Below, one piece after another: positions 1-6,820 of a stretch of 11,561 bases of DNA (position 1 is the stretch's first letter; the number at the start of each line of letters is the position of its first letter). Both the position numbers and the translations under genes were made by a program. Under the pieces are notes generated by a model, which searched no databases, was not told the origin of the DNA, and saw only the letters and a program-made list of their open reading frames with translations. Source of the DNA: a virus (taxonomy: Duplodnaviria; Heunggongvirae; Uroviricota; Caudoviricetes); IMG/VR virus record IMGVR_UViG_2850756110_000001. One strand, written 5' to 3'.

Positions 1-728
1 TCAAATAACCAGCTTAACCCATTCCTGACCTCGAGTATCGTTATAGCGATCGGTGGTTGCCTGGACTTTATGTCCTAGTAATGTTTTTGTATCGATACCC
101 TGTGCACGGTACAGCCGTTCTGATAGAGAGCGTTGTTCATGAAATGTTGGCGGAGTTTTTCCTGCTGGTGGAATTATCCCAGCCAGATCCCGTGCTTTGG
201 CAAAGTAGTCGCTCAGGTTGTCTTTACTCATCGGCTTCGGTTGTTTCTGGTGCCGACTATGGATTAGATATGGACTTAATATTCTGTCTCGGCACCCATC
301 AATAACTTCTTTTAACGTTATCCCAATGGCATCACAGCGTAGTGTAAGCGGTAACGCCAGACGCATTCCGGTTTTTCCCTGGGTGATATGCAAGTGTTCG
401 TTCCACACATCTGAAAAACGCATGTGGCAAATGTCATCACGGCGCTGACCAGTAACAATCGCAAGAAGCATTGCGTTACGGATAAAGTGTTTTTCAGGCG
501 TTGCATTGTAAATTTTTTGCCAGTCTTCCATGGTGAGCCTGGCTCTGGTTACTTTAGGGATCGGTTTACGGGTAGCCTCCGGAGGATTCCATCCAGGAGG
601 AACTTCCCCTGCATGCTGTGCTTCTTTATAAATATCAACCCATAATCCACGATTTACTCTCGCTGTGCTGACCATGTCTTTATCCAGCCACTCATCCAGT
701 ATTAATGCAAAGTCTCTTACTTCCAGTT
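1..728 (-). pseudogene. int: Phage tyrosine integrase, C-terminal catalytic part of a gene split by IS2
   Basis: Minus-strand frame ends with TGA at 3..1. Translation (...EVRDFALILDEW...TGQRRDD...QGKTG...TFHEQRSLSERLY...GHKVQATTDRYNDTRGQEW) carries the R / K / HxxR / Y recombinase signature and resembles the lambda Int C-terminus. The first ~13 residues of the track ORF (up to 765) are encoded by IS2, not by the gene. Confidence 0.85.
724..728. repeat. IS2 target-site duplication, left copy (CAGTT)
   Basis: CAGTT immediately outside the IS2 terminus at 729; identical pentamer at 2060-2064 outside the other terminus. Confidence 0.85.
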
Positions 729-739
729 TGGATTTGCCC

Positions 740-1645
740 CTATATTTCCAGACATCTGTTATCACTTAACCCATTACAAGCCCGCTGCCGCAGATATTCC
801 CGTGGCGAGCGATAACCCAGCGCACTATGCGGATGCCATTCGTTATAATGCTCGAACGCCTCTGCAAGGTTCTTTGCTGCCGTTAACCCGTCTGGTTTGG
901 GCATGATACTGATGTAGTCACGCTTTATCGTTTTCACGAAGCTCTCTGCTATTCCGTTACTCTCCGGACTCCGCACCGCCGTGTTCTTCGGTTCAAGTCC
1001 CAACATCCGGGCGAACTGGCGTGTTTCATTAGCCCGGTAGCATGAACCATTATCCGTCAGCCACTCCACTGGAGACGACGGAAGATCGTTGCCGAAGCGG
1101 CGTTCCACCGCACCCAGCATGACGTCCTGTACTGTTTCACTGTTGAAGCCGCCGGTAGTCACCGCCCAGTGCAGTGCCTCACGATCACAGCAGTCCAGCG
1201 CGAACGTGACACGCAGTCTCTCTCCGTTATCACAGCAGAACTCGAACCCGTCAGAGCACCATCGCTGATTGCTTTCTTTCACGGCCACTCTGCCTGTATG
1301 TGCCCGTTTCGATGGTGGTACAGCAGGTTTTCGCTCAAGCAACAGCGCATTCTGGCGCATGATCCGGTAAACACGTTTGGCATTGATCGCAGGCATACCA
1401 TCAAGTTCTGCCTGTCTGCGAAGCAGCGCCCATACCCGACGATAACCATACGTGGGCAGCTCTCCGATAACATGGTGTATACGGAGAAGCACATCCGTAT
1501 CATCAGTGTGACGACTGCGGCGGCCATCCATCCAGTCATCGGTTCGTCTGAGAATGACGTGCAACTGCGCACGCGACACCCGGAGACAACGGCTGACTAA
1601 GCTTACTCCCCATCCCCGGGCAATAAGGGCGCGTGCGCTATCCAC
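740..1645 (-). CDS. insD: IS2 transposase OrfB (InsD), DDE integrase-like catalytic domain
   Basis: 301-aa ORF ([20 protein letters not shown]...[14 protein letters not shown]...) recognised as IS2 InsD; overlaps orfA as expected for IS3-family frameshift expression. Confidence 0.9.
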
Positions 1646-1968
1646 TTTTTTGCCCGTCCATATTCAACGGCTTCTTTGAGGAGTTCATTTTCCATCGTTT
1701 TCTTGCCGAGCAGGCGCTGGAGTTCTTTAATCTGCTTCATGGCGGCAGCAAGTTCAGAGGCAGGAACAACCTGTTCTCCGGCGGCCACAGCAGTAAGACT
1801 TCCTTCCTGGTATTGCTTACGCCAGAGAAATAACTGGCTGGCTGCTACACCATGTTGCCGGGCAACGAGGGAGACCGTCATCCCCGGTTCAAAGCTCTGC
1901 TGAACAATTGCGATCTTTTCCTGTGTGGTACGCCGTCTGCGTTTCTCCGGCCCTAAGACATCAATCAT
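1603..1968 (-). CDS. insC: IS2 transposase OrfA (InsC), HTH DNA-binding protein
   Basis: 121-aa product [41 protein letters not shown]... starting at the ATG at 1968. The track ORF extends 15 codons further upstream from a non-ATG start. Confidence 0.9.
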
Positions 1969-2059
1969 CTGTACTCCAATGACTAGTCTAAAAACTAGTA
2001 TTAAGACTATCACTTATTTAAGTGATACTGGTTGTCTGGAGATTCAGGGGGCCAGTCTA

Positions 2060-2064
2060 CAGTT
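2060..2064. repeat. IS2 target-site duplication, right copy (CAGTT)
   Basis: Direct repeat of 724-728 flanking the IS2 insertion. Confidence 0.85.
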
Positions 2065-2455
2065 CTTTCAATGGGTGGTTTCCCAGACGGGAAACCAGGT
2101 ATGCAGCCATTCGAGTTTTTTCTTTGTGAGTTGTAGCTGCAATATCTCCATTTTTCAGTCGCGTGTCCTGTATTTTCAGATATCGATCAACCCATGCCTT
2201 TAATCTGATACCCCGACGTTTTGTTGCTGACGGACTTTCATCAATTTTGCGCATGAAATATTCAGCTTCTGCTGCAGCTATTCGCTGATTGGCTGTGGAA
2301 GCGATTTTTTCTGCCTTACCTTTGTCTGTTCCGAGTCCGTGAAATTTTCCAGTCACAGGATTTTTATACTGGTAGTAAACTCTGCCAGTTCTGCGATCAA
2401 ACTTTTCGTAAAGACCGGCTACGTCAGTGCTGTTTTTTCGTGGCCTCGGTGACAT
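2060..2455 (-). pseudogene. int: Phage tyrosine integrase, N-terminal part (arm-binding/core-binding region), interrupted by IS2
   Basis: Minus-strand ATG at 2455..2453; translation MSPRPRKNSTDVAGLYEKFDRRTGRVYYQYKNPVTGKFHGLGTDKGK...KEL has the lambdoid Int N-terminal pattern. After removing IS2 and one TSD copy the frame continues directly into 728..1 (...KEL|EVRDFAL...), giving ~372 aa. Confidence 0.85.
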
Positions 2456-2671
2456 GAGTTAAAATCTCCTTCAGTGCATCATCATCGCCAGTATGAATTT
2501 CCGGCGCAATTCCCGTTTCACCAGGCCCAACAAATACTGCTCGGCGATCTATCAGCCAACGCCCACGAATTTTTTGTGGTCTTGGAACGATGTATCCTAG
2601 TTTTCCGTATTTCACCAGGGTAGTGTTTGTTATTGGGAGACTGAACCGTTTTGGTTTCCACTCGTCGAGCG
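2424..2671 (-). pseudogene. xis: Excisionase (Xis-like), 5' end removed or replaced by IS1
   Basis: Native translation PLDEWKPKRFSLPITNTTLVKYGKLGYIVPRPQKIRGRWLIDRRAVFV... resembles lambda Xis (LTLQEWNARQRRPRSLETVRRWVRECRIFPPPVKDGREYLFHESAV). Overlaps int start by ~32 bp as in xis-int modules. No start codon in the native part; the track ORF N-terminus (58 aa) is encoded by IS1. Confidence 0.6.
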
Positions 2672-2726
2672 GGTAATGCTGCCAACTTACTGATTTAGTG
2701 TATGATGGTGATTTTAAGGTGCTTGC

Positions 2727-3002
2727 GTGGCTTCCATTTCCATCAGATGTCCTTCCTGCTCCGCTACTGAAGGCGTGGTGCGTAACGGCAAAAGCACTGC
2801 CGGACATCAGCGCTATCTCTGCTCTCATTGCCGTAAAACATGGCAACTACAGTTCACTTACACCGCCTCTCAGCCCGGTACGCACCAGAAAATCATTGAT
2901 ATGGCCATGAATGGCGTCGGATGTCGCGCCAGTGCACGCATTATGGGCGTTGGCCTCAACACGGTTTTACGTCACTTAAAAAACTCAGGCCGCAGTCGGT
3001 AA
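2727..3002 (+). CDS. insA: IS1 InsA
   Basis: 91-aa product [58 protein letters not shown]..., recognised as IS1 InsA. Confidence 0.9.
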
Positions 3003-3424
3003 CCTCGCGCATACAACCGGGCAGTGATGTGATTGTCTGCGCTGAAATGGACGAACAGTGGGGCTACGTCGGTGCTAAATCACGTCAGCGCTGGCTGTTT
3101 TACGCGTATGACAGGATACGGAGGACGGTTGTGGCGCACGTCTTCGGTGAACGCACTCTGGCCACACTGGAGCGTCTTCTGAGCCTGCTGTCGGCCTTTG
3201 AGGTCGTGGTATGGATGACGGATGGCTGGCCGCTGTATGAATCACGCCTGAAGGGAAAGCTGCACGTTATCAGCAAGCGTTACACTCAGCGCATTGAGCG
3301 ACATAATCTGAATCTGAGACAACATCTGGCAAGGCTGGGACGGAAGTCACTGTCGTTCTCAAAATCGGTGGAGCTGCATGACAAGGTCATCGGGCATTAT
3401 CTGAACATAAAACACTATCAGTAA
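2921..3424 (+). CDS. insB: IS1 InsB frame (expressed as InsAB' by -1 frameshift)
   Basis: 167-aa frame ...[36 protein letters not shown]...[13 protein letters not shown]..., recognised as IS1 InsB. Confidence 0.85.
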
Positions 3425-3439
3425 GTTGGAGTCATTACC

Positions 3440-3550
3440 GCTTCGGCTTTGAACTCTTTAGAGTAACGTTGTTTTTTTCTGCTCATTATTAGCTCCTTCT
3501 GATGCCATTCTATTTCAGGAAGGAGTGTCCGTTAAACTCAGGCTACCTCA
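3440..3550 (-). mobile_element. IS600-like (IS3 family) left-end remnant: terminal IR plus first 16 codons of orfA, truncated by IS1
   Basis: Minus strand reads TGAGGTAGCCTGAGTTTAACGGACACTCCTTCCTGAAATAGAATGGCATCAGAAGGAGCTAATA-ATG AGC AGA AAA AAA CAA CGT TAC TCT AAA GAG TTC AAA GCC GAA GC: a TG... IS3-family terminus, AAGGAG SD, and MSRKKQRYSKEFKAEA, which matches my recollection of the IS600 IRL and OrfA N-terminus. It is cut at 3440 by the IS1 terminus. Confidence 0.75.
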
Positions 3551-4049
3551 CTGTGATATTGCTGCAGACAAGGCAAAACTTTTACTGGAAAAAGGCGGGG
3601 AAATTGCTGTCCGGTTTAAAATCCCCGAAAACGTCAATCTTGAGACAACCAGAAACAAGTATGCCTTTGGTTTGTACTGGCGAATAGCGGAATGGCCGGG
3701 TGAGGGTGGTGAAGGCCATCTGAGTTCTTTCTTTGTCCAGTCAGATAAAGCCAGTATTAATGTTGCATACCATCATACAGTTAATCAACAAAAAGAACTT
3801 GGCACGTTTGGCGCATTCGACCATGACTGGCATACGCTTGCATTTAAATTTAAGGGCAGTAACAGCATTAATGTTACTCCGGTGCTTGATGGTGTGGATG
3901 GACAGGCGTTTGACCTGGTGAAATGGGCCAATACTGCTAATGGACTCAACAGGTTTGTCATTACGGATATTACAGGTAGTGCAGAAACCTACCCTGTACT
4001 TATTGATACGGTGGAAGTTAAAGCAAACAAAGCTGGAGCAGCCGCATAA
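3551..4049 (+). pseudogene. Orphan 3' fragment (~166 codons) of an unknown gene whose 5' part was displaced by the IS600 insertion
   Basis: Open frame runs from inside the IS600 end to TAA at 4047-4049 with no in-frame ATG. The only start candidate (GTG 3525) lies inside the IS600 inverted repeat with zero-spaced SD. Product (...WHTLAFKFKGSNSINVTPVLDGVDGQAFDLVKWANTANGLNRFVITDITG...) has a beta-rich, lectin/ConA-like look; function not established. Confidence 0.5.
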
Positions 4050-4053
4050 TTGC

Positions 4054-4091
4054 TAAAAAAAGCCGCCAGCGGCAGGAATGGAAGCTGGCGG
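4054..4091 (-). terminator. Intrinsic-terminator-like hairpin; strong on minus strand (stem + U7), weak on plus strand
   Basis: 8-bp GC-rich stem CCGCCAGC (4063-4070) / GCTGGCGG (4084-4091), 13-nt loop. On the minus strand the stem is followed by a run of 7 T (plus-strand A-run 4055-4061). It sits 5 bp after the stop of the 3551-4049 frame. Confidence 0.45.
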
Positions 4092-4139
4092 AGGTAATCC
4101 CAATGGAGAATGTAAAGAAAAGATGCTTTCGTACATTGG

Positions 4140-4170
4140 TTTTTTAAATGAAAACAATTCTCATTGTCAA
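4140..4170 (-). promoter_or_regulatory. Candidate sigma70 promoter on minus strand (perfect -35 TTGACA, -10 TTTAAA/TAAAAA)
   Basis: Minus strand reads TTGACA-atgagaattgttttca-TTTAAA. Would fire toward the 4054-4091 terminator about 80 nt away. Sequence only, no expression data. Confidence 0.25.
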
Positions 4171-4394
4171 CCATAACGGTAAGAAATTATGACATTTATT
4201 CATCAGGTGATGCTGTACTTCTGTACGGCGGTCTGTGCTGTATCTTCTTTCGGGTGGGTACAGGGCTGTGCGCGATTTCTGGTACAGGCAGATTGATAAA
4301 AGGGCCGCTGAGAAAATCAGCGCCAGTCAGTCAGCCGGAAGCAAACCCGAAGAACCCGTTACTCCTTAACAACCCCTTTCAGCGAGAAAATCCC

Positions 4395-4640: not shown

Positions 4641-4652
4641 GCATGCGCAAGG

Positions 4653-4685
4653 GACCATCGGTGTGTGCCGGTGGTCTTTATATTG
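4653..4685 (+). terminator. Candidate intrinsic terminator between the acidic ORF and the holin gene
   Basis: GACCATCGG (4653-4661) pairs with CCGGTGGTC (4668-4676) (9 bp incl. one G-U), 6-nt loop, then TTTATATTGTTGTG. Confidence 0.4.
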
Positions 4686-4716: not shown

Positions 4717-4932
4717 ATGTACCAGATGGAAAAAATCACAACAGGTGTGTCATACACCACGTCAGCGGTGGGAACGGGCTACTGGTTCCTGCAGTTGCTG
4801 GACAGGGTTTCCCCGTCTCAGTGGGCGGCAATAGGCGTGCTGGGGAGTCTGTTGTTTGGGCTGCTGACATATCTGACTAACCTGTATTTCAAAATCAGAG
4901 AGGACCGTCGTAAGGCGGCGTGGGGAGAGTAA
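4717..4932 (+). CDS. Class II holin, phage 21 S-type pinholin with dual start (Met1/Met4)
   Basis: [71 protein letters not shown] closely resembles S21 as I remember it (...[24 protein letters not shown]...[18 protein letters not shown]...). Two TMDs; second ATG at 4726. Confidence 0.85.
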
Positions 4933-4936
4933 AGCG

Positions 4937-5281
4937 ATGAAGAAAAAATACGAACTGGTTGTTAAAGGGATAAATAATTACCCGAATAAGATTACTGTTA
5001 CTGTGGCACTGGAAATTGGTGGGTATCCGTCACTGTTGTTGCCAGATGTGGCGATTAGTCTTGACCGTACTGAAGATGCCACGCTGGAGTTTTACGAAGC
5101 TGAGGCGAAAAAGCAGGCGAAGCAGTTTTTCATGGATGTTGCTGCCGGGTTATGTGAAGGGGATGGTCCGTTGCCGGAAAAGCGCCCCGTAATTTTAGAG
5201 GCGCAGGATGTGTTGATAACCTACAGAGGAAAACTACCGGGAATAATTACTGGTTCTCTGAAGACTCCACCGCTGGCCTGA
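4937..5281 (+). CDS. Hypothetical protein between holin and endolysin (same position as YdfR/DUF1327-type prophage genes; family not verified)
   Basis: ATG at 4937 preceded by GGAGAG; 114 aa, soluble; starts 5 bp after the holin stop. Confidence 0.65.
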   Translation: MKKKYELVVKGINNYPNKITVTVALEIGGYPSLLLPDVAISLDRTEDATLEFYEAEAKKQAKQFFMDVAAGLCEGDGPLPEKRPVILEAQDVLITYRGKLPGIITGSLKTPPLA

Positions 5282-5331
5282 AGACTTAACATATCCAGGG
5301 ATTTGAAATCGATAAACCCTGATAAATATCC

Positions 5332-5865
5332 ATGAACACCAAAATCAAATACGGCCTGTCGGCTGCCATTCTGGCGCTGATTGCCGCAGGTGCGCCTGCG
5401 CCTGAAATCCTCGACCAGTTTCTGGATGAAAAGGAAGGTAACCACACCACGGCATACCGTGATGGCGCGGGTATCTGGACCATCTGCCGCGGTGCCATCC
5501 TGGTGGATAGTAAACCTGTCGTCCCGGGCATGAAGTTGTCGAAGGAAAAATGCGACCAGGTCAACGCCATTGAGCGTGATAAGGCGCTGGCATGGGTGGA
5601 GCGCAATATTAAAGTGCCGCTGACCGAACCCCAGAAAGCGGGTATCGCGTCATTTTGTCCCTATAACATTGGCCCCGGTAAGTGTTTCCCGTCGACGTTT
5701 TACAGACGGATTAATGCTGGTGACCGCAGGGGAGCATGCGAAGCGATTCGCTGGTGGATTAAGGACGGTGGCAGAGACTGCCGTATCCGCTCAAATAATT
5801 GCTACGGTCAGGTATCCCGGCGAGACCAGGAAAGTGCGCTGGCGTGCTGGGACATCGACAGATAA
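5332..5865 (+). CDS. SAR endolysin (T4-lysozyme-like muramidase, glycoside hydrolase family 24)
   Basis: N-terminal weakly hydrophobic Gly/Ala-rich segment (YGLSAAILALIAAGAPAP) typical of a signal-anchor-release domain. Catalytic triad E35...D44...T50 (KEGNHTTAYRDGAGIWT) with the same spacing as the triad I recall for P21 R. Downstream partner of a pinholin. Confidence 0.9.
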   Translation: MNTKIKYGLSAAILALIAAGAPAPEILDQFLDEKEGNHTTAYRDGAGIWTICRGAILVDSKPVVPGMKLSKEKCDQVNAIERDKALAWVERNIKVPLTEPQKAGIASFCPYNIGPGKCFPSTFYRRINAGDRRGACEAIRWWIKDGGRDCRIRSNNCYGQVSRRDQESALACWDIDR

Positions 5866-5955
5866 GCAGAATATTTTGCTGAAAAATAAGGCATGAGCAC
5901 GCGGACGGATAACACGAAATCCTGCGAACTGGCGAAACGTAAGTGAATAAAAGTA

Positions 5956-5995
5956 AAAACCCCGTTTGTTGGCACCAAGCGGGGTTTTGTGTTTC
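5956..5995. terminator. Bidirectional intrinsic-terminator-like hairpin between endolysin and Rz
   Basis: Perfect 9-bp stem AAAACCCCG (5956-5964) / CGGGGTTTT (5980-5988), extended by an inner TTGG/CCAA pairing, followed on plus strand by TTTTGTGTTT and on minus strand by TTTTTACTTTTATT. Confidence 0.5.
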
Positions 5996-6021
5996 TGACC
6001 TTGAGTAAGGCAAGGGAGAAC

Positions 6022-6204
6022 ATGGCGAAGTATAAACGAATTCTGTTGAGGTTGACCATGAAAAACGGCCTTGAACTGAAAGCGCCTGTAACTGATGACA
6101 TCAGCAGAGCACTGGCTTTTGCCATTAAGTGGGTGGCGGTCGGTGTTGCTGTGTCCCCGATGCTGTATGGGCTGGCAAAACTGGTCATTGCGTTGAAATC
6201 GTGA
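6022..6204 (+). CDS. Hypothetical small membrane protein (60 aa; basic N-terminus, one C-terminal TM helix)
   Basis: ATG at 6022 preceded by AAGGGAGA; product [60 protein letters not shown]. Its stop overlaps the SD of the next ORF. Confidence 0.45.
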
Positions 6205-6218
6205 AGGGAGGATTAAGC

Positions 6219-6350
6219 ATGTCAGACAAACTCATAACGCTGGCGAAGATCCTCTGTGTAATTGTCGGCATTTCATTTTCACTAATGCTGGTTGCTCTTT
6301 TTCTTTCCATGGCCTGGATGATGTTGTCTTCGTCGGGGCTGCTGGGGTGA
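6219..6350 (+). CDS. Hypothetical small single-pass membrane protein (43 aa), translationally coupled to Rz
   Basis: Strong SD AAGGGAGG 7 nt upstream of ATG 6219; product [43 protein letters not shown]. Its TGA (6348-6350) overlaps the GTG start of Rz (GTGA). Confidence 0.55.
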
Positions 6351-6820
6351 ACATAAACCGAATGCTTTCCGCGTTTACCGTTATTCTGCTGGTGGTCTGT
6401 GGTGCGCTGTGGCTGGCAACAGACCATTACCGTGATAACGCCATCACCTACAAAGCGCAGCGCGATAAAAAAGCCAGAGAGCTGGAGCTGGCAAACGCAA
6501 CCATTACTGACATGCAGCAGCGCCAGCGTGATGTTGCTGCGCTTGATGCCAGATACTCAAGGGAATTAGCCGATGCGAGAGCTGAAAATGAAACTCTGCG
6601 TGCTGATGTTGCCGCTGGTCGTAAGCGCCTGCGGATCAACGCCACCTGCTCCGGTACCGTGCGTGAAGCCACCGGCACCTCCGGAATGGATAATGCAACC
6701 GGCCCCCGACTGGCAGACACCGCTGAACGGGATTATTTCACCCTCAGAGAGCGGTTGATGACAATGCAGAAGCAACTGGAAGGGGCGCAGGAATATATCC
6801 GCACTCAGTGTATTAACTAG
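6347..6820 (+). CDS. Rz: Rz inner-membrane spanin (i-spanin)
   Basis: ...[72 protein letters not shown]...[29 protein letters not shown] is nearly collinear with lambda Rz. N-terminal TM helix. Start is GTG 6347 or ATG 6362. Confidence 0.9.
6573..6758 (+). CDS. Rz1: Rz1 outer-membrane lipoprotein spanin (o-spanin), embedded in the +1 frame of Rz
   Basis: [61 protein letters not shown] matches lambda Rz1 (...LCVMMLPLVVVGC...[32 protein letters not shown]). Lipobox VSAC, proline-rich mature part. Start may be the internal MKL. Confidence 0.85.

Follow-up and report, generated by a model that had tools for sequence, protein, structure and literature searches.

Lambdoid lysis is among the best-studied gene circuits and is taught as the work of four genes: S, R, Rz and Rz1. 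In the cassette of lambda, P21 and Qin, a class II holin of the P21 type, a SAR-type lysozyme and an Rz gene with Rz1 embedded in it follow one another in that order, and Rz abuts the gene upstream of it such that the R stop codon overlaps the Rz start. In the Qin prophage of E. coli K-12, rrrQ is joined directly to rzpQ with a 4-nt overlap, and an insert between the two is therefore dispensable for a working cassette design. Lysis timing governs toxin release in Shiga-toxin (Stx) phages, one of which, P13374, carries the order R - ant - ORF53 - Rz.

The locus described here lies in an 11,561-nt stretch of phage DNA (the window) that, from the translations of its ORFs, we take to be a degraded lambdoid prophage in an IS-rich genome of the Escherichia/Shigella type. 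Its integrase gene is presumably split by an IS2-like element, and the translations also point to what we take to be IS1, IS66-family and IS110-family elements. No Q gene remains within this IS-ridden window, and the lysis cassette is its sole intact block. The known genes of the cassette are as follows.

Listed ahead of the holin: DUF826 gene, found by family search
4717-4932: P21-type class II holin with an M1/M4 dual start (Phage_holin_2_1 match, 1.9e-32)
4937-5281: YdfR/DUF1327 gene, between S and R
5332-5865: SAR-type lysozyme R, the endolysin
6347-6820, plus strand: Rz i-spanin gene (Pfam Phage_lysis, 7e-50)
6573-6758, plus strand: Rz1 o-spanin gene, embedded in Rz (Pfam Rz1, 1.5e-19)

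The types of holin, lysozyme and spanins and their order are those of the lambda/P21/Qin cassette. Unlike that cassette, the present one has a YdfR/DUF1327 gene between S and R and a gap of approximately 480 nt between R and Rz, which holds an untranslated region (UTR), a terminator hairpin and two small membrane ORFs. Here it is the second of these ORFs, and not R, that is joined to Rz. The features of the insert are as follows.

5866-5955, plus strand: conserved 3' flank of the endolysin gene, the untranslated leader of the module
5956-5998, plus strand: intrinsic-terminator-like hairpin and U tract (stem 5956-5968 with 5976-5988, loop 5969-5975)
6012-6019, plus strand: Shine-Dalgarno (SD) site of ORF1 (AAGGGAGA), with an anti-SD duplex of -8.4 kcal/mol
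6022-6204, plus strand: ORF1, 60 aa (phrog_1115/4493)
6048-6060, plus strand: putative internal start of ORF1 (GAGG at 6048-6051, 6-nt spacer, ATG of Met13 at 6058-6060), which would give a nested 48-aa form
6204-6211, plus strand: SD site of ORF2 (AAGGGAGG), sharing one base with the ORF1 stop codon (6202-6204)
6219-6350, plus strand: ORF2, 43 aa (phrog_4906, a family of unknown function, 2.1e-23)

A preliminary description of this DNA had reported two ORFs of 60 and 43 aa after the terminator and had treated them as genes. Both are present, at 6022-6204 and 6219-6350, and homologues between R and Rz were found in many E. coli prophages and, for ORF1, in Salmonella as well. Selection on these ORFs was assessed by pooled pairwise Nei-Gojobori counts over the unique alleles of related sequences, a descriptive measure that uses no tree. 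ORF1 has a pN/pS of 0.255 (28 alleles) in the called frame versus 1.10 and 2.65 in the other two frames, and ORF2 has a pN/pS of 0.469 (18 alleles) versus 0.72 and 1.49. Reference values at the same loci are 0.163 for the holin, 0.141 for R, 0.418 for Rz and 0.535 for ydfR; the rounded values for the two ORFs (0.26 and 0.47) thus stand beside 0.42 for Rz. The codon-aligned antisense frame is broken by stops in 12 of the 28 ORF1 alleles and is interrupted in every ORF2 allele. ORF1 and ORF2 are real protein-coding genes under purifying selection in the called frame alone.

These data bear directly on the notion that the ORFs are non-functional recombination leftovers picked up by gene callers. 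Rearranged copies of the kind that this explanation expects do occur: in some an ORF1 C-terminal fragment follows ORF2, others are fusions, and a single allele contains an internal stop. However, selection is frame-specific, the start signals and the hairpin are conserved, and both ORFs are intact in nearly all of the approximately 100 loci sampled from two genera. The explanation is already disfavoured, and we consider it most improbable.

Four other reading frames in the region were considered and rejected. A longer, 71-aa version of ORF1 beginning at GTG 5989 was rejected, as its upstream extension crosses the U tract of the terminator and, in the Salmonella loci, meets a stop codon; a 73-aa version (GTG 6129) was set aside with it. 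An antisense ORF of 126 aa (5808-6188) spans the terminator and contains stops in 12 of 28 alleles. A 17-codon mini-ORF in the UTR (5894-5947) loses its start in the Stx-phage and Salmonella copies.

Both ORFs are annotated as hypothetical proteins in RefSeq, and neither matches a Pfam, NCBIfam or lysis-category PHROG family. ORF1 matches two PHROGs families without assigned function (phrog_1115, 2.6e-42; phrog_4493, 4.3e-30). Its SD duplex falls below the 5th percentile of the window background, and the spacing to the start codon is short. The N-terminal segment is basic, with a net charge of +5 ahead of the anchor. A core sequence, FAIKW, is invariant and is flanked by the conserved residues A32 and V38. 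An AlphaFold2 (AF2) model places helices at residues 2-14 and 21-59 (mean pLDDT 76). The hydrophobicity of the C-terminal segment is low (+3.7) and similar to that of the SAR domain of R. ORF1 is predicted to be a tail-anchored, N-in protein held by a weak membrane anchor on a long C-terminal helix.

The internal start of ORF1 shows its own pattern of conservation. GAGG or GGAGG is kept at the Met13 spacing in all nine of the nine ORF1 family representatives, and this SD site persists despite differences in the residues that it encodes (LRL versus VEA). Many gene callers place the ORF1 start at Met13, and distant members begin MKNG. The first 12 codons retain their peptide pattern in distant members. 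The conservation of the Met13 SD site together with that of codons 1-12 suggests that ORF1 is probably made in both 60-aa and 48-aa forms.

The anti-SD duplex of ORF2, at -11.3 kcal/mol, is the strongest in the cassette and lies beyond the 1st percentile of the window background, which agrees with its earlier designation as near-consensus; the duplex ends at -6, near the usual spacing. The transmembrane helix of ORF2 is unambiguous (residues 11-29), with a summed Hessa dG of -3.8 versus -2.1 for the transmembrane domain (TMD) of Rz. Because the N-terminus is short and carries a charge of +1 and the 14-residue tail is uncharged, an N-in/C-out topology is predicted. The single transmembrane helix that the preliminary description assigned to each ORF is therefore clear for ORF2, whereas ORF1 has a weakly hydrophobic segment that resembles the SAR domain.

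Overlaps between translation signals link ORF1, ORF2 and Rz into a chain: the ORF1 stop codon lies inside the ORF2 SD site, and the ORF2 stop codon overlaps or abuts the Rz start. As first described, the ORF2 stop TGA (6348-6350) overlaps a GTG at 6347-6349 (GTGA), with the caveat that the Rz start in the RefSeq/PGAP annotation is an ATG at 6362, 15 nt beyond the GTG. The Rz N-terminus read from the GTG (MNINRML) parallels the MNRVL of other Rz alleles. The GTG has an SD duplex of -5.0 and the ATG one of -6.0 with a spacing of 12 nt, and neither is well placed. Since the SD sites are weak or badly spaced at both candidate starts, translation of Rz at this locus should rely on ribosomes completing ORF2, whichever start is used.

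We examined 32 unique Rz junction contexts. In 28 of these, the ORF that ends at most 12 nt from the Rz start is a small membrane-peptide ORF, namely ORF2, ORF1, O3, O5 or a 49-aa relative of ORF1. The other four have a methyltransferase gene (L060), an ORF in L003, upstream sequence in L088 and a deletion-disrupted Rz N-terminus (L008). In all contexts but L088 and L008, an upstream ORF ends no farther than 12 nt from the Rz start. Judging from these contexts, coupling appears to be a property of Rz with any upstream gene, including the Qin endolysin, the methyltransferase of L060 and the other small ORFs. The tight linkage to the spanins that had been proposed for the two ORFs therefore stands with regard to their overlapping signals; the Qin and L060 junctions argue against its being exclusive to ORF1 and ORF2.

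This pattern raises the possibility that the small ORFs act in cis only. The peptides would then have little function of their own, and the ORFs would be leader ORFs that restored coupling to Rz after an insertion (of the UTR and terminator, or of ant) parted it from the endolysin. The poor SD sites at the Rz start and the readiness of Rz to abut or overlap an unrelated upstream ORF favour such an explanation. The 'RWW-stop' C-termini that recur in the small ORFs simply encode the Rz SD site GGTGGTGA, and the C-terminal half of ORF2 is variable (pN/pS 0.56). Against this, the constraint on ORF1 equals that on bona fide lysis genes, ORF1 has its invariant FAIKW and conserved A32 and V38, and ORF2 is constrained in its N-terminal half (pN/pS of 0.33 for codons 1-24). 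In addition, nearly every ORF in this slot encodes a membrane peptide, a feature for which coupling by itself gives no reason, and ORF1 relatives persist without Rz. We regard a purely cis-acting role as unlikely.

The distribution of the two genes is uneven. Of 5,426 complete E. coli genomes, 988 (about a fifth) carry the 535-nt region with a coverage of 80% or higher, annotated there as two hypothetical proteins; E. coli copies number roughly 5,300 in all. By protein search, relatives were found in Escherichia alone for ORF2 and in Escherichia and Salmonella for ORF1. ORF2 occurs in 276 phage records, mostly of Stx phages, and ORF1 in 14; in most Stx phages ORF2 lies directly ahead of Rz, and megablast matches there extend from ORF2 into Rz. 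In phage P13374, ORF53 (49 aa) is the homologue of ORF2 (phrog_4906, 3.9e-32), and its stop codon lies in the same GGGGTGA junction before Rz. The Stx phages differ from the present locus in carrying ant instead of the terminator and ORF1, and there ORF2 is coupled to the ant stop codon and has a 6-residue N-terminal extension. ORF53 is unannotated in many Stx-phage records.

The following arrangements were observed between R and Rz, where T denotes the terminator hairpin and ORF1C the ORF1 C-terminal fragment.

R-T-ORF1-ORF2-Rz: the commonest arrangement, found in the present window
R-T-ORF1-ORF2-ORF1C-O3-Rz: L034 and L041
R-T-O4-ORF2-ORF1C-O3-Rz: EC958 (L089)
R-T-ORF1-O3-Rz: L054
R-T-O5-Rz: SF-468 (L091)
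R-ant-ORF2-Rz: Stx phages
R-T-ORF1-Rz: Salmonella, with an HP1-type holin
ORF2 split from Rz by a methyltransferase gene or other genes: L060 and L088

O3, at 28 aa, is paralogous to the C-terminus of ORF1, and O4 and O5 belong to phrog_6632, another family without assigned function. In the Salmonella prophages, which have a different type of holin, ORF1 homologues lie between the lysozyme gene and Rz. These arrangements indicate that the gap between R and Rz is a variable slot and that the module is mosaic and mobile.

ORF1 relatives are also found elsewhere. Each with a hairpin of its own, they follow tail-fibre genes, adjoin a DUF1353 gene or precede a probable portal gene (identified by eye from its translation), and some are tandem paralogues. 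Because relatives sit by tail-fibre and probable portal genes, ORF1 does not appear to be strictly a lysis-cassette gene. This observation is expected if ORF1, and perhaps ORF2, were cargo of the moron type, unrelated to lysis and serving superinfection exclusion, host fitness or as a membrane toxin from permissive gaps in late operons. The gap between R and Rz is a known insertion point, at which Stx phages carry ant. The family is also narrow and patchy: an exhaustive profile search with ORF1 against 1.84 billion representative proteins yielded 22 small representative clusters, none of them tied to a named family, and no locus was confirmed when 185,579 species, each represented by a single genome, were scanned with an ORF1 profile. 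A cargo role has to contend with the upstream DNA, where a terminator lies immediately before the genes and no promoter-like site is present on the plus strand, making expression in a lysogen unlikely. Moreover, PADLOC gives no defence-protein match for ORF1, ORF2 or O5, and ORF2 almost always adjoins the spanin position. We consider cargo unrelated to lysis to be rather improbable.

The leader upstream of the hairpin (approximately 90 nt) is homologous, and can be aligned, in prophages of E. coli and Salmonella; it is retained in Stx phages whose terminator has been replaced, and its core GGATAACA at 5907-5914 is invariant. The hairpin has 13 pairs including an A/U extension (6 G-C pairs), a 7-nt loop and the tail TTTTGTGTTT, and so has the GC-rich stem, short loop and directly 3' U tract of an intrinsic terminator. 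RNA folding gives -18.9 kcal/mol (z = -2.9), a value equalled in none of 200 shuffles. In 11 contexts from E. coli, Salmonella and metagenomes, at both lysis and non-lysis positions, a small membrane ORF of these families has a GC-rich hairpin with a U tract 20-53 nt ahead of its start, with dG values of -17.8 to -27.6. In the alignment of these 11 sequences, 89.5% of cells pair and both sides change in 6 of the 13 pairs. The covariation score of 0.337 compares with 0.121 in shuffles (reached by 0 of 500), and slid controls give at most 0.087. The structure of the hairpin, and not its sequence, is kept through compensatory changes.

The terminator had been described as strong and bidirectional. 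The reverse strand also folds, less well than the forward one (-15.7 kcal/mol, z = -2.05, with 7 of 200 shuffles as good) and has one stem mismatch. It carries a better U tract than the forward strand, supplied by an A tract that lies upstream of the hairpin and is invariant in the 11 contexts. Bidirectional activity is therefore plausible, and would be weaker on the reverse strand. Rfam yielded no RNA family for either the hairpin or the UTR, at gathering or at permissive thresholds; the only match, on the minus strand at 5946-6020, is weak and sub-threshold and is essentially a match to the terminator.

The reverse face of the hairpin is relevant to a further proposal, that the locus resembles a type I toxin-antitoxin system. 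A minus-strand antisense RNA would start within the 5' end of ORF1, cover the ORF1 SD site and end at the hairpin. A candidate promoter for such an RNA is present.

-35 at 6058-6053 and -10 at 6034-6029, minus strand: promoter-like site inside the 5' end of ORF1

The folding and U tract of the reverse strand, the invariant A tract and the minus-strand Rfam match would all favour this proposal, as would the low synonymous divergence of ORF1 codons 1-12 (pS 0.16 versus 0.36 for codons 29-60), and the peptides are small and hydrophobic, as type I toxins are. However, promoter-like sites occur in the region at the frequency expected by chance (three versus 3.3), and the -10 element coincides in part with a conserved Lys/Gln-Tyr codon pair; a more distant member (L104) lacks this element but keeps the peptide pattern. 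The absence of an Rfam family at the gathering threshold and of a separate plus-strand promoter for a toxin mRNA also count against it. The suggestion in the preliminary description that the peptides are toxin-like finds little support, as there is no Rfam, PADLOC or Pfam match, and we judge a type I arrangement to be very unlikely.

No sigma-70-like promoter was found on the plus strand between R and ORF1 (5866 to 6022), and it is therefore a reasonable inference that expression of the small ORFs depends on read-through of the hairpin. By analogy with the lambda paradigm, the hairpin would terminate transcription and Q would permit read-through.

Taken together, the data are best explained by a mobile late-operon module that comprises the hairpin and two inner-membrane-protein genes, runs as a coupled chain into Rz and is accessory to lysis. 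We assign this explanation a probability of roughly 0.5. In a lysogen, the hairpin would halt stray transcription and the module, having no promoter, would be silent. On read-through by Q-modified polymerase, the peptides and the spanins would be made from antiterminated late transcripts only. Ribosomes would translate ORF1 (probably as the 60-aa and 48-aa forms), ORF2 and then Rz as a coupled chain, such that translation of the small ORFs would hand ribosomes to an Rz start that has no good SD site. Inserted in the inner membrane, the peptides would be accessory to the lysis module and dispensable for it, and ORF2 would most likely act with or on the membrane-anchored i-spanin Rz.

A role as a regulator of lysis, spanin or holin is plausible from the position of the genes. 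Almost without exception, the ORF preceding Rz encodes a membrane peptide, and these peptides come from three or more unrelated families, a pattern that suggests more than bare coupling and makes the i-spanin a likely partner. Because Rz is coupled to non-membrane genes too and ORF1 relatives occur away from Rz, we hold a spanin-specific reading only modestly. In its most specific version, the peptides ahead of Rz (ORF2 and the interchangeable O3, O5 and ORF1-type peptides) would be dedicated partners of the i-spanin, serving either as an 'anti-spanin' that holds its TMD inactive or to bring the polycistronic mRNA to the membrane for co-translational insertion of Rz. We consider this version doubtful. 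If it were correct, most Stx phages would carry a regulator of the final step of Gram-negative lysis, at the outer membrane, and no phage-encoded regulator of that step would have preceded it.

Our search found no paper on either gene (most subscription journals lay outside its coverage), and a survey of Stx-phage lysis cassettes does not mention them. We place the module among a known kind, the accessory small membrane proteins of phage lysis cassettes. Its significance is that two further conserved membrane-protein genes reside inside a textbook lysis cassette, one of them directly before Rz in hundreds of Stx phages. If the peptides adjust lysis timing or the production of spanins, they would alter burst size and the release of Stx. 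ORFs of 60 and 43 codons would also offer a simple genetic handle in phages that plate on K-12; plaque-forming relatives include PhiR5_2 and PhiR12 (PV340546, PV340549).

Judged on sequence or architecture, the module falls outside each of the known systems with which we compared it: holins, spanins, the Mu-type releasin, morons and PADLOC defence proteins. An i-spanin combines an N-terminal TMD with a long coiled-coil domain in the periplasm, and o- and u-spanins have a lipobox. By contrast, ORF2 and ORF1 would have only 14 and 2 periplasmic residues, respectively, and have neither a lipobox nor a Phage_lysis or Rz1 match. The holins offer a closer parallel, as ORF1, like lambda S105/S107 and S21 68/71, has two nested, SD-preceded starts whose products differ by a positively charged N-terminal extension. 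Holin dual starts are 2-3 codons apart, whereas those of ORF1 are separated by 12, and a bona fide holin is already present in the cassette. Neither ORF matches a holin family, and although both have TMDs, the charged hydrophilic cytoplasmic C-terminus of holins is absent, since ORF1 ends in 'KS' and the tail of ORF2 is uncharged.

Phage Mu provides an example of an accessory membrane protein in a SAR-endolysin cassette. Its releasin gp25 (DUF2730) is a 99-aa protein of N-out/C-in topology with an anionic 73-aa cytoplasmic domain (PMC9239132). Both gp25 and ORF1 are small late proteins that are tethered to the membrane and have a short cytoplasmic domain; their genes lie a few genes from that of a SAR endolysin, and neither protein is a holin or a spanin. 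ORF1 differs in being 60 aa long, predicted N-in and tail-anchored, with a basic N-terminus, and shows no sequence kinship (no Pfam DUF2730 match). In addition, the present cassette has its own pinholin, and ORF1 relatives also occur with no endolysin nearby.

Finally, the module shares with morons, the promoter-gene-terminator units of lambdoid phages, a mosaic and mobile character, a bounding terminator and an occurrence at several unrelated positions in late operons. The likenesses to Mu releasin, to holin dual starts and to morons are offered as functional analogies only. In contrast to a moron, the terminator here is upstream, no promoter-like site precedes the genes, and Rz follows without a terminator. 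An upstream terminator without a promoter-like site suggests that the unit is built for antitermination-dependent expression rather than for expression in a lysogen. The recurring order of a terminator hairpin followed by a small membrane ORF may thus mark genes apparently built for antitermination-only expression.

The unit formed by the terminator-like hairpin and the two small membrane-protein genes ORF1 and ORF2 was found again in a different lysis cassette, which carries two holins and a GH108 endolysin (comparison locus L090, positions 2578-3099). There, ORF1 contains an internal stop, and the gene 3′ of ORF2 is not Rz but encodes a 60-aa lipoprotein (lipobox LVGC, phrog_7528). At another prophage locus (L060), a 311-aa ORF (3337-4272) is inserted between ORF2 and Rz; a DPPY motif recognized on reading its sequence makes it a putative DNA methyltransferase. 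Because the stop codon of this ORF overlaps the ATG of Rz, Rz is coupled to whichever gene lies upstream.

The slot before Rz holds different small membrane ORFs in other prophages (L089, L091 and L105). Salmonella prophage loci carry tandem ORF1 relatives (L101 and L102) or an additional ORF near ORF1 (L097). These features, in the coordinates of each locus, are:

L089 3055-3141, small ORF before Rz
L091 2660-2797, small ORF before Rz
L089 2657-2791, small ORF before Rz
L105 2501-2650, small ORF before Rz
L097 2714-2811, 32-codon hydrophobic ORF (MAAMICFVAAFMLACDGRSGWGWFLLVGLIVM) in a Salmonella prophage
L101 2805-3168, tandem ORF1-family paralogues of 64 aa, then 55 aa
L102 165-528, tandem ORF1-family paralogues of 64 aa, then 55 aa

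Among the alternative pre-Rz ORFs, one of 28 aa (O3) is paralogous to the C-terminus of ORF1, two of 44-45 aa (O4 and O5) are members of phrog_6632, and a 49-aa relative of ORF1 occupies this slot in a widespread Salmonella prophage remnant. Several end in 'RWW-stop', which is an in-frame reading of the Rz Shine-Dalgarno sequence GGTGGTGA. The 32-codon ORF lies upstream of a UTR-hairpin-ORF1 unit and overlaps the last part of the lysozyme gene. At the end of a Salmonella prophage, a SASA/DUF6645 esterase gene precedes the tandem paralogues and a DUF1353 gene follows them; two terminator hairpins in a row stand ahead of the first paralogue.

Within the window, the cassette contains the following additional elements:

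4650-4679, second terminator-like hairpin (13 pairs, tail ATATTGTTGT)
4937-5281, YdfR/DUF1327 gene between holin and endolysin
5907-5914 (within 5900-5925), invariant core GGATAACA in the 3′ UTR of the endolysin gene R
6029-6058, minus strand, promoter-like site (TGGTCA, 18 nt, TATACT) directed to the hairpin upstream of ORF1
6048-6060, internal start of ORF1 (GAGG, 6-nt spacer, ATG at Met13)

The second hairpin falls in the interval from the DUF826 gene to the holin start (4717), so a hairpin precedes the holin gene too, in the same pattern as for the small ORFs. The ydfR gene is the least constrained of the cassette (pN/pS 0.535), and occupies the same position between holin and endolysin as its counterpart in K-12 Qin. 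R begins 50 nt after the ydfR stop, with no detectable Shine-Dalgarno pairing in 5310-5334 (+0.3 kcal/mol). The GGATAACA core is common to E. coli and Salmonella prophages; in the surrounding region (5900-5925), which has no Rfam match, 5907-5910 pair with 5919-5922 in a short stem of 4 bp.

Outside the cassette, the prophage is heavily degraded (1-3470 and 7458-11561). The minus-strand integrase gene, with its C-terminal part at 1-765 and its N-terminal part at 2057-2455, is interrupted by a putative IS2-like element, and the DUF6645 gene is truncated by a putative IS1. Downstream of the cassette lie what we assume, from ORF translations, to be IS66-family and IS110-family elements.

RNA from the minus-strand site, if made, would be antisense to the ORF1 Shine-Dalgarno sequence. 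Promoter-like sites in the region are as many as chance predicts, and the -10 element shares bases with conserved codons. The internal GAGG-spacer-ATG is kept in all nine family representatives (9/9), despite differing residues encoded by the Shine-Dalgarno region. The sequence suggests that ORF1 may be made in two isoforms, of 60 aa and 48 aa, the longer one bearing a +4 N-terminal extension; these two predicted isoforms recall the dual starts of holins.
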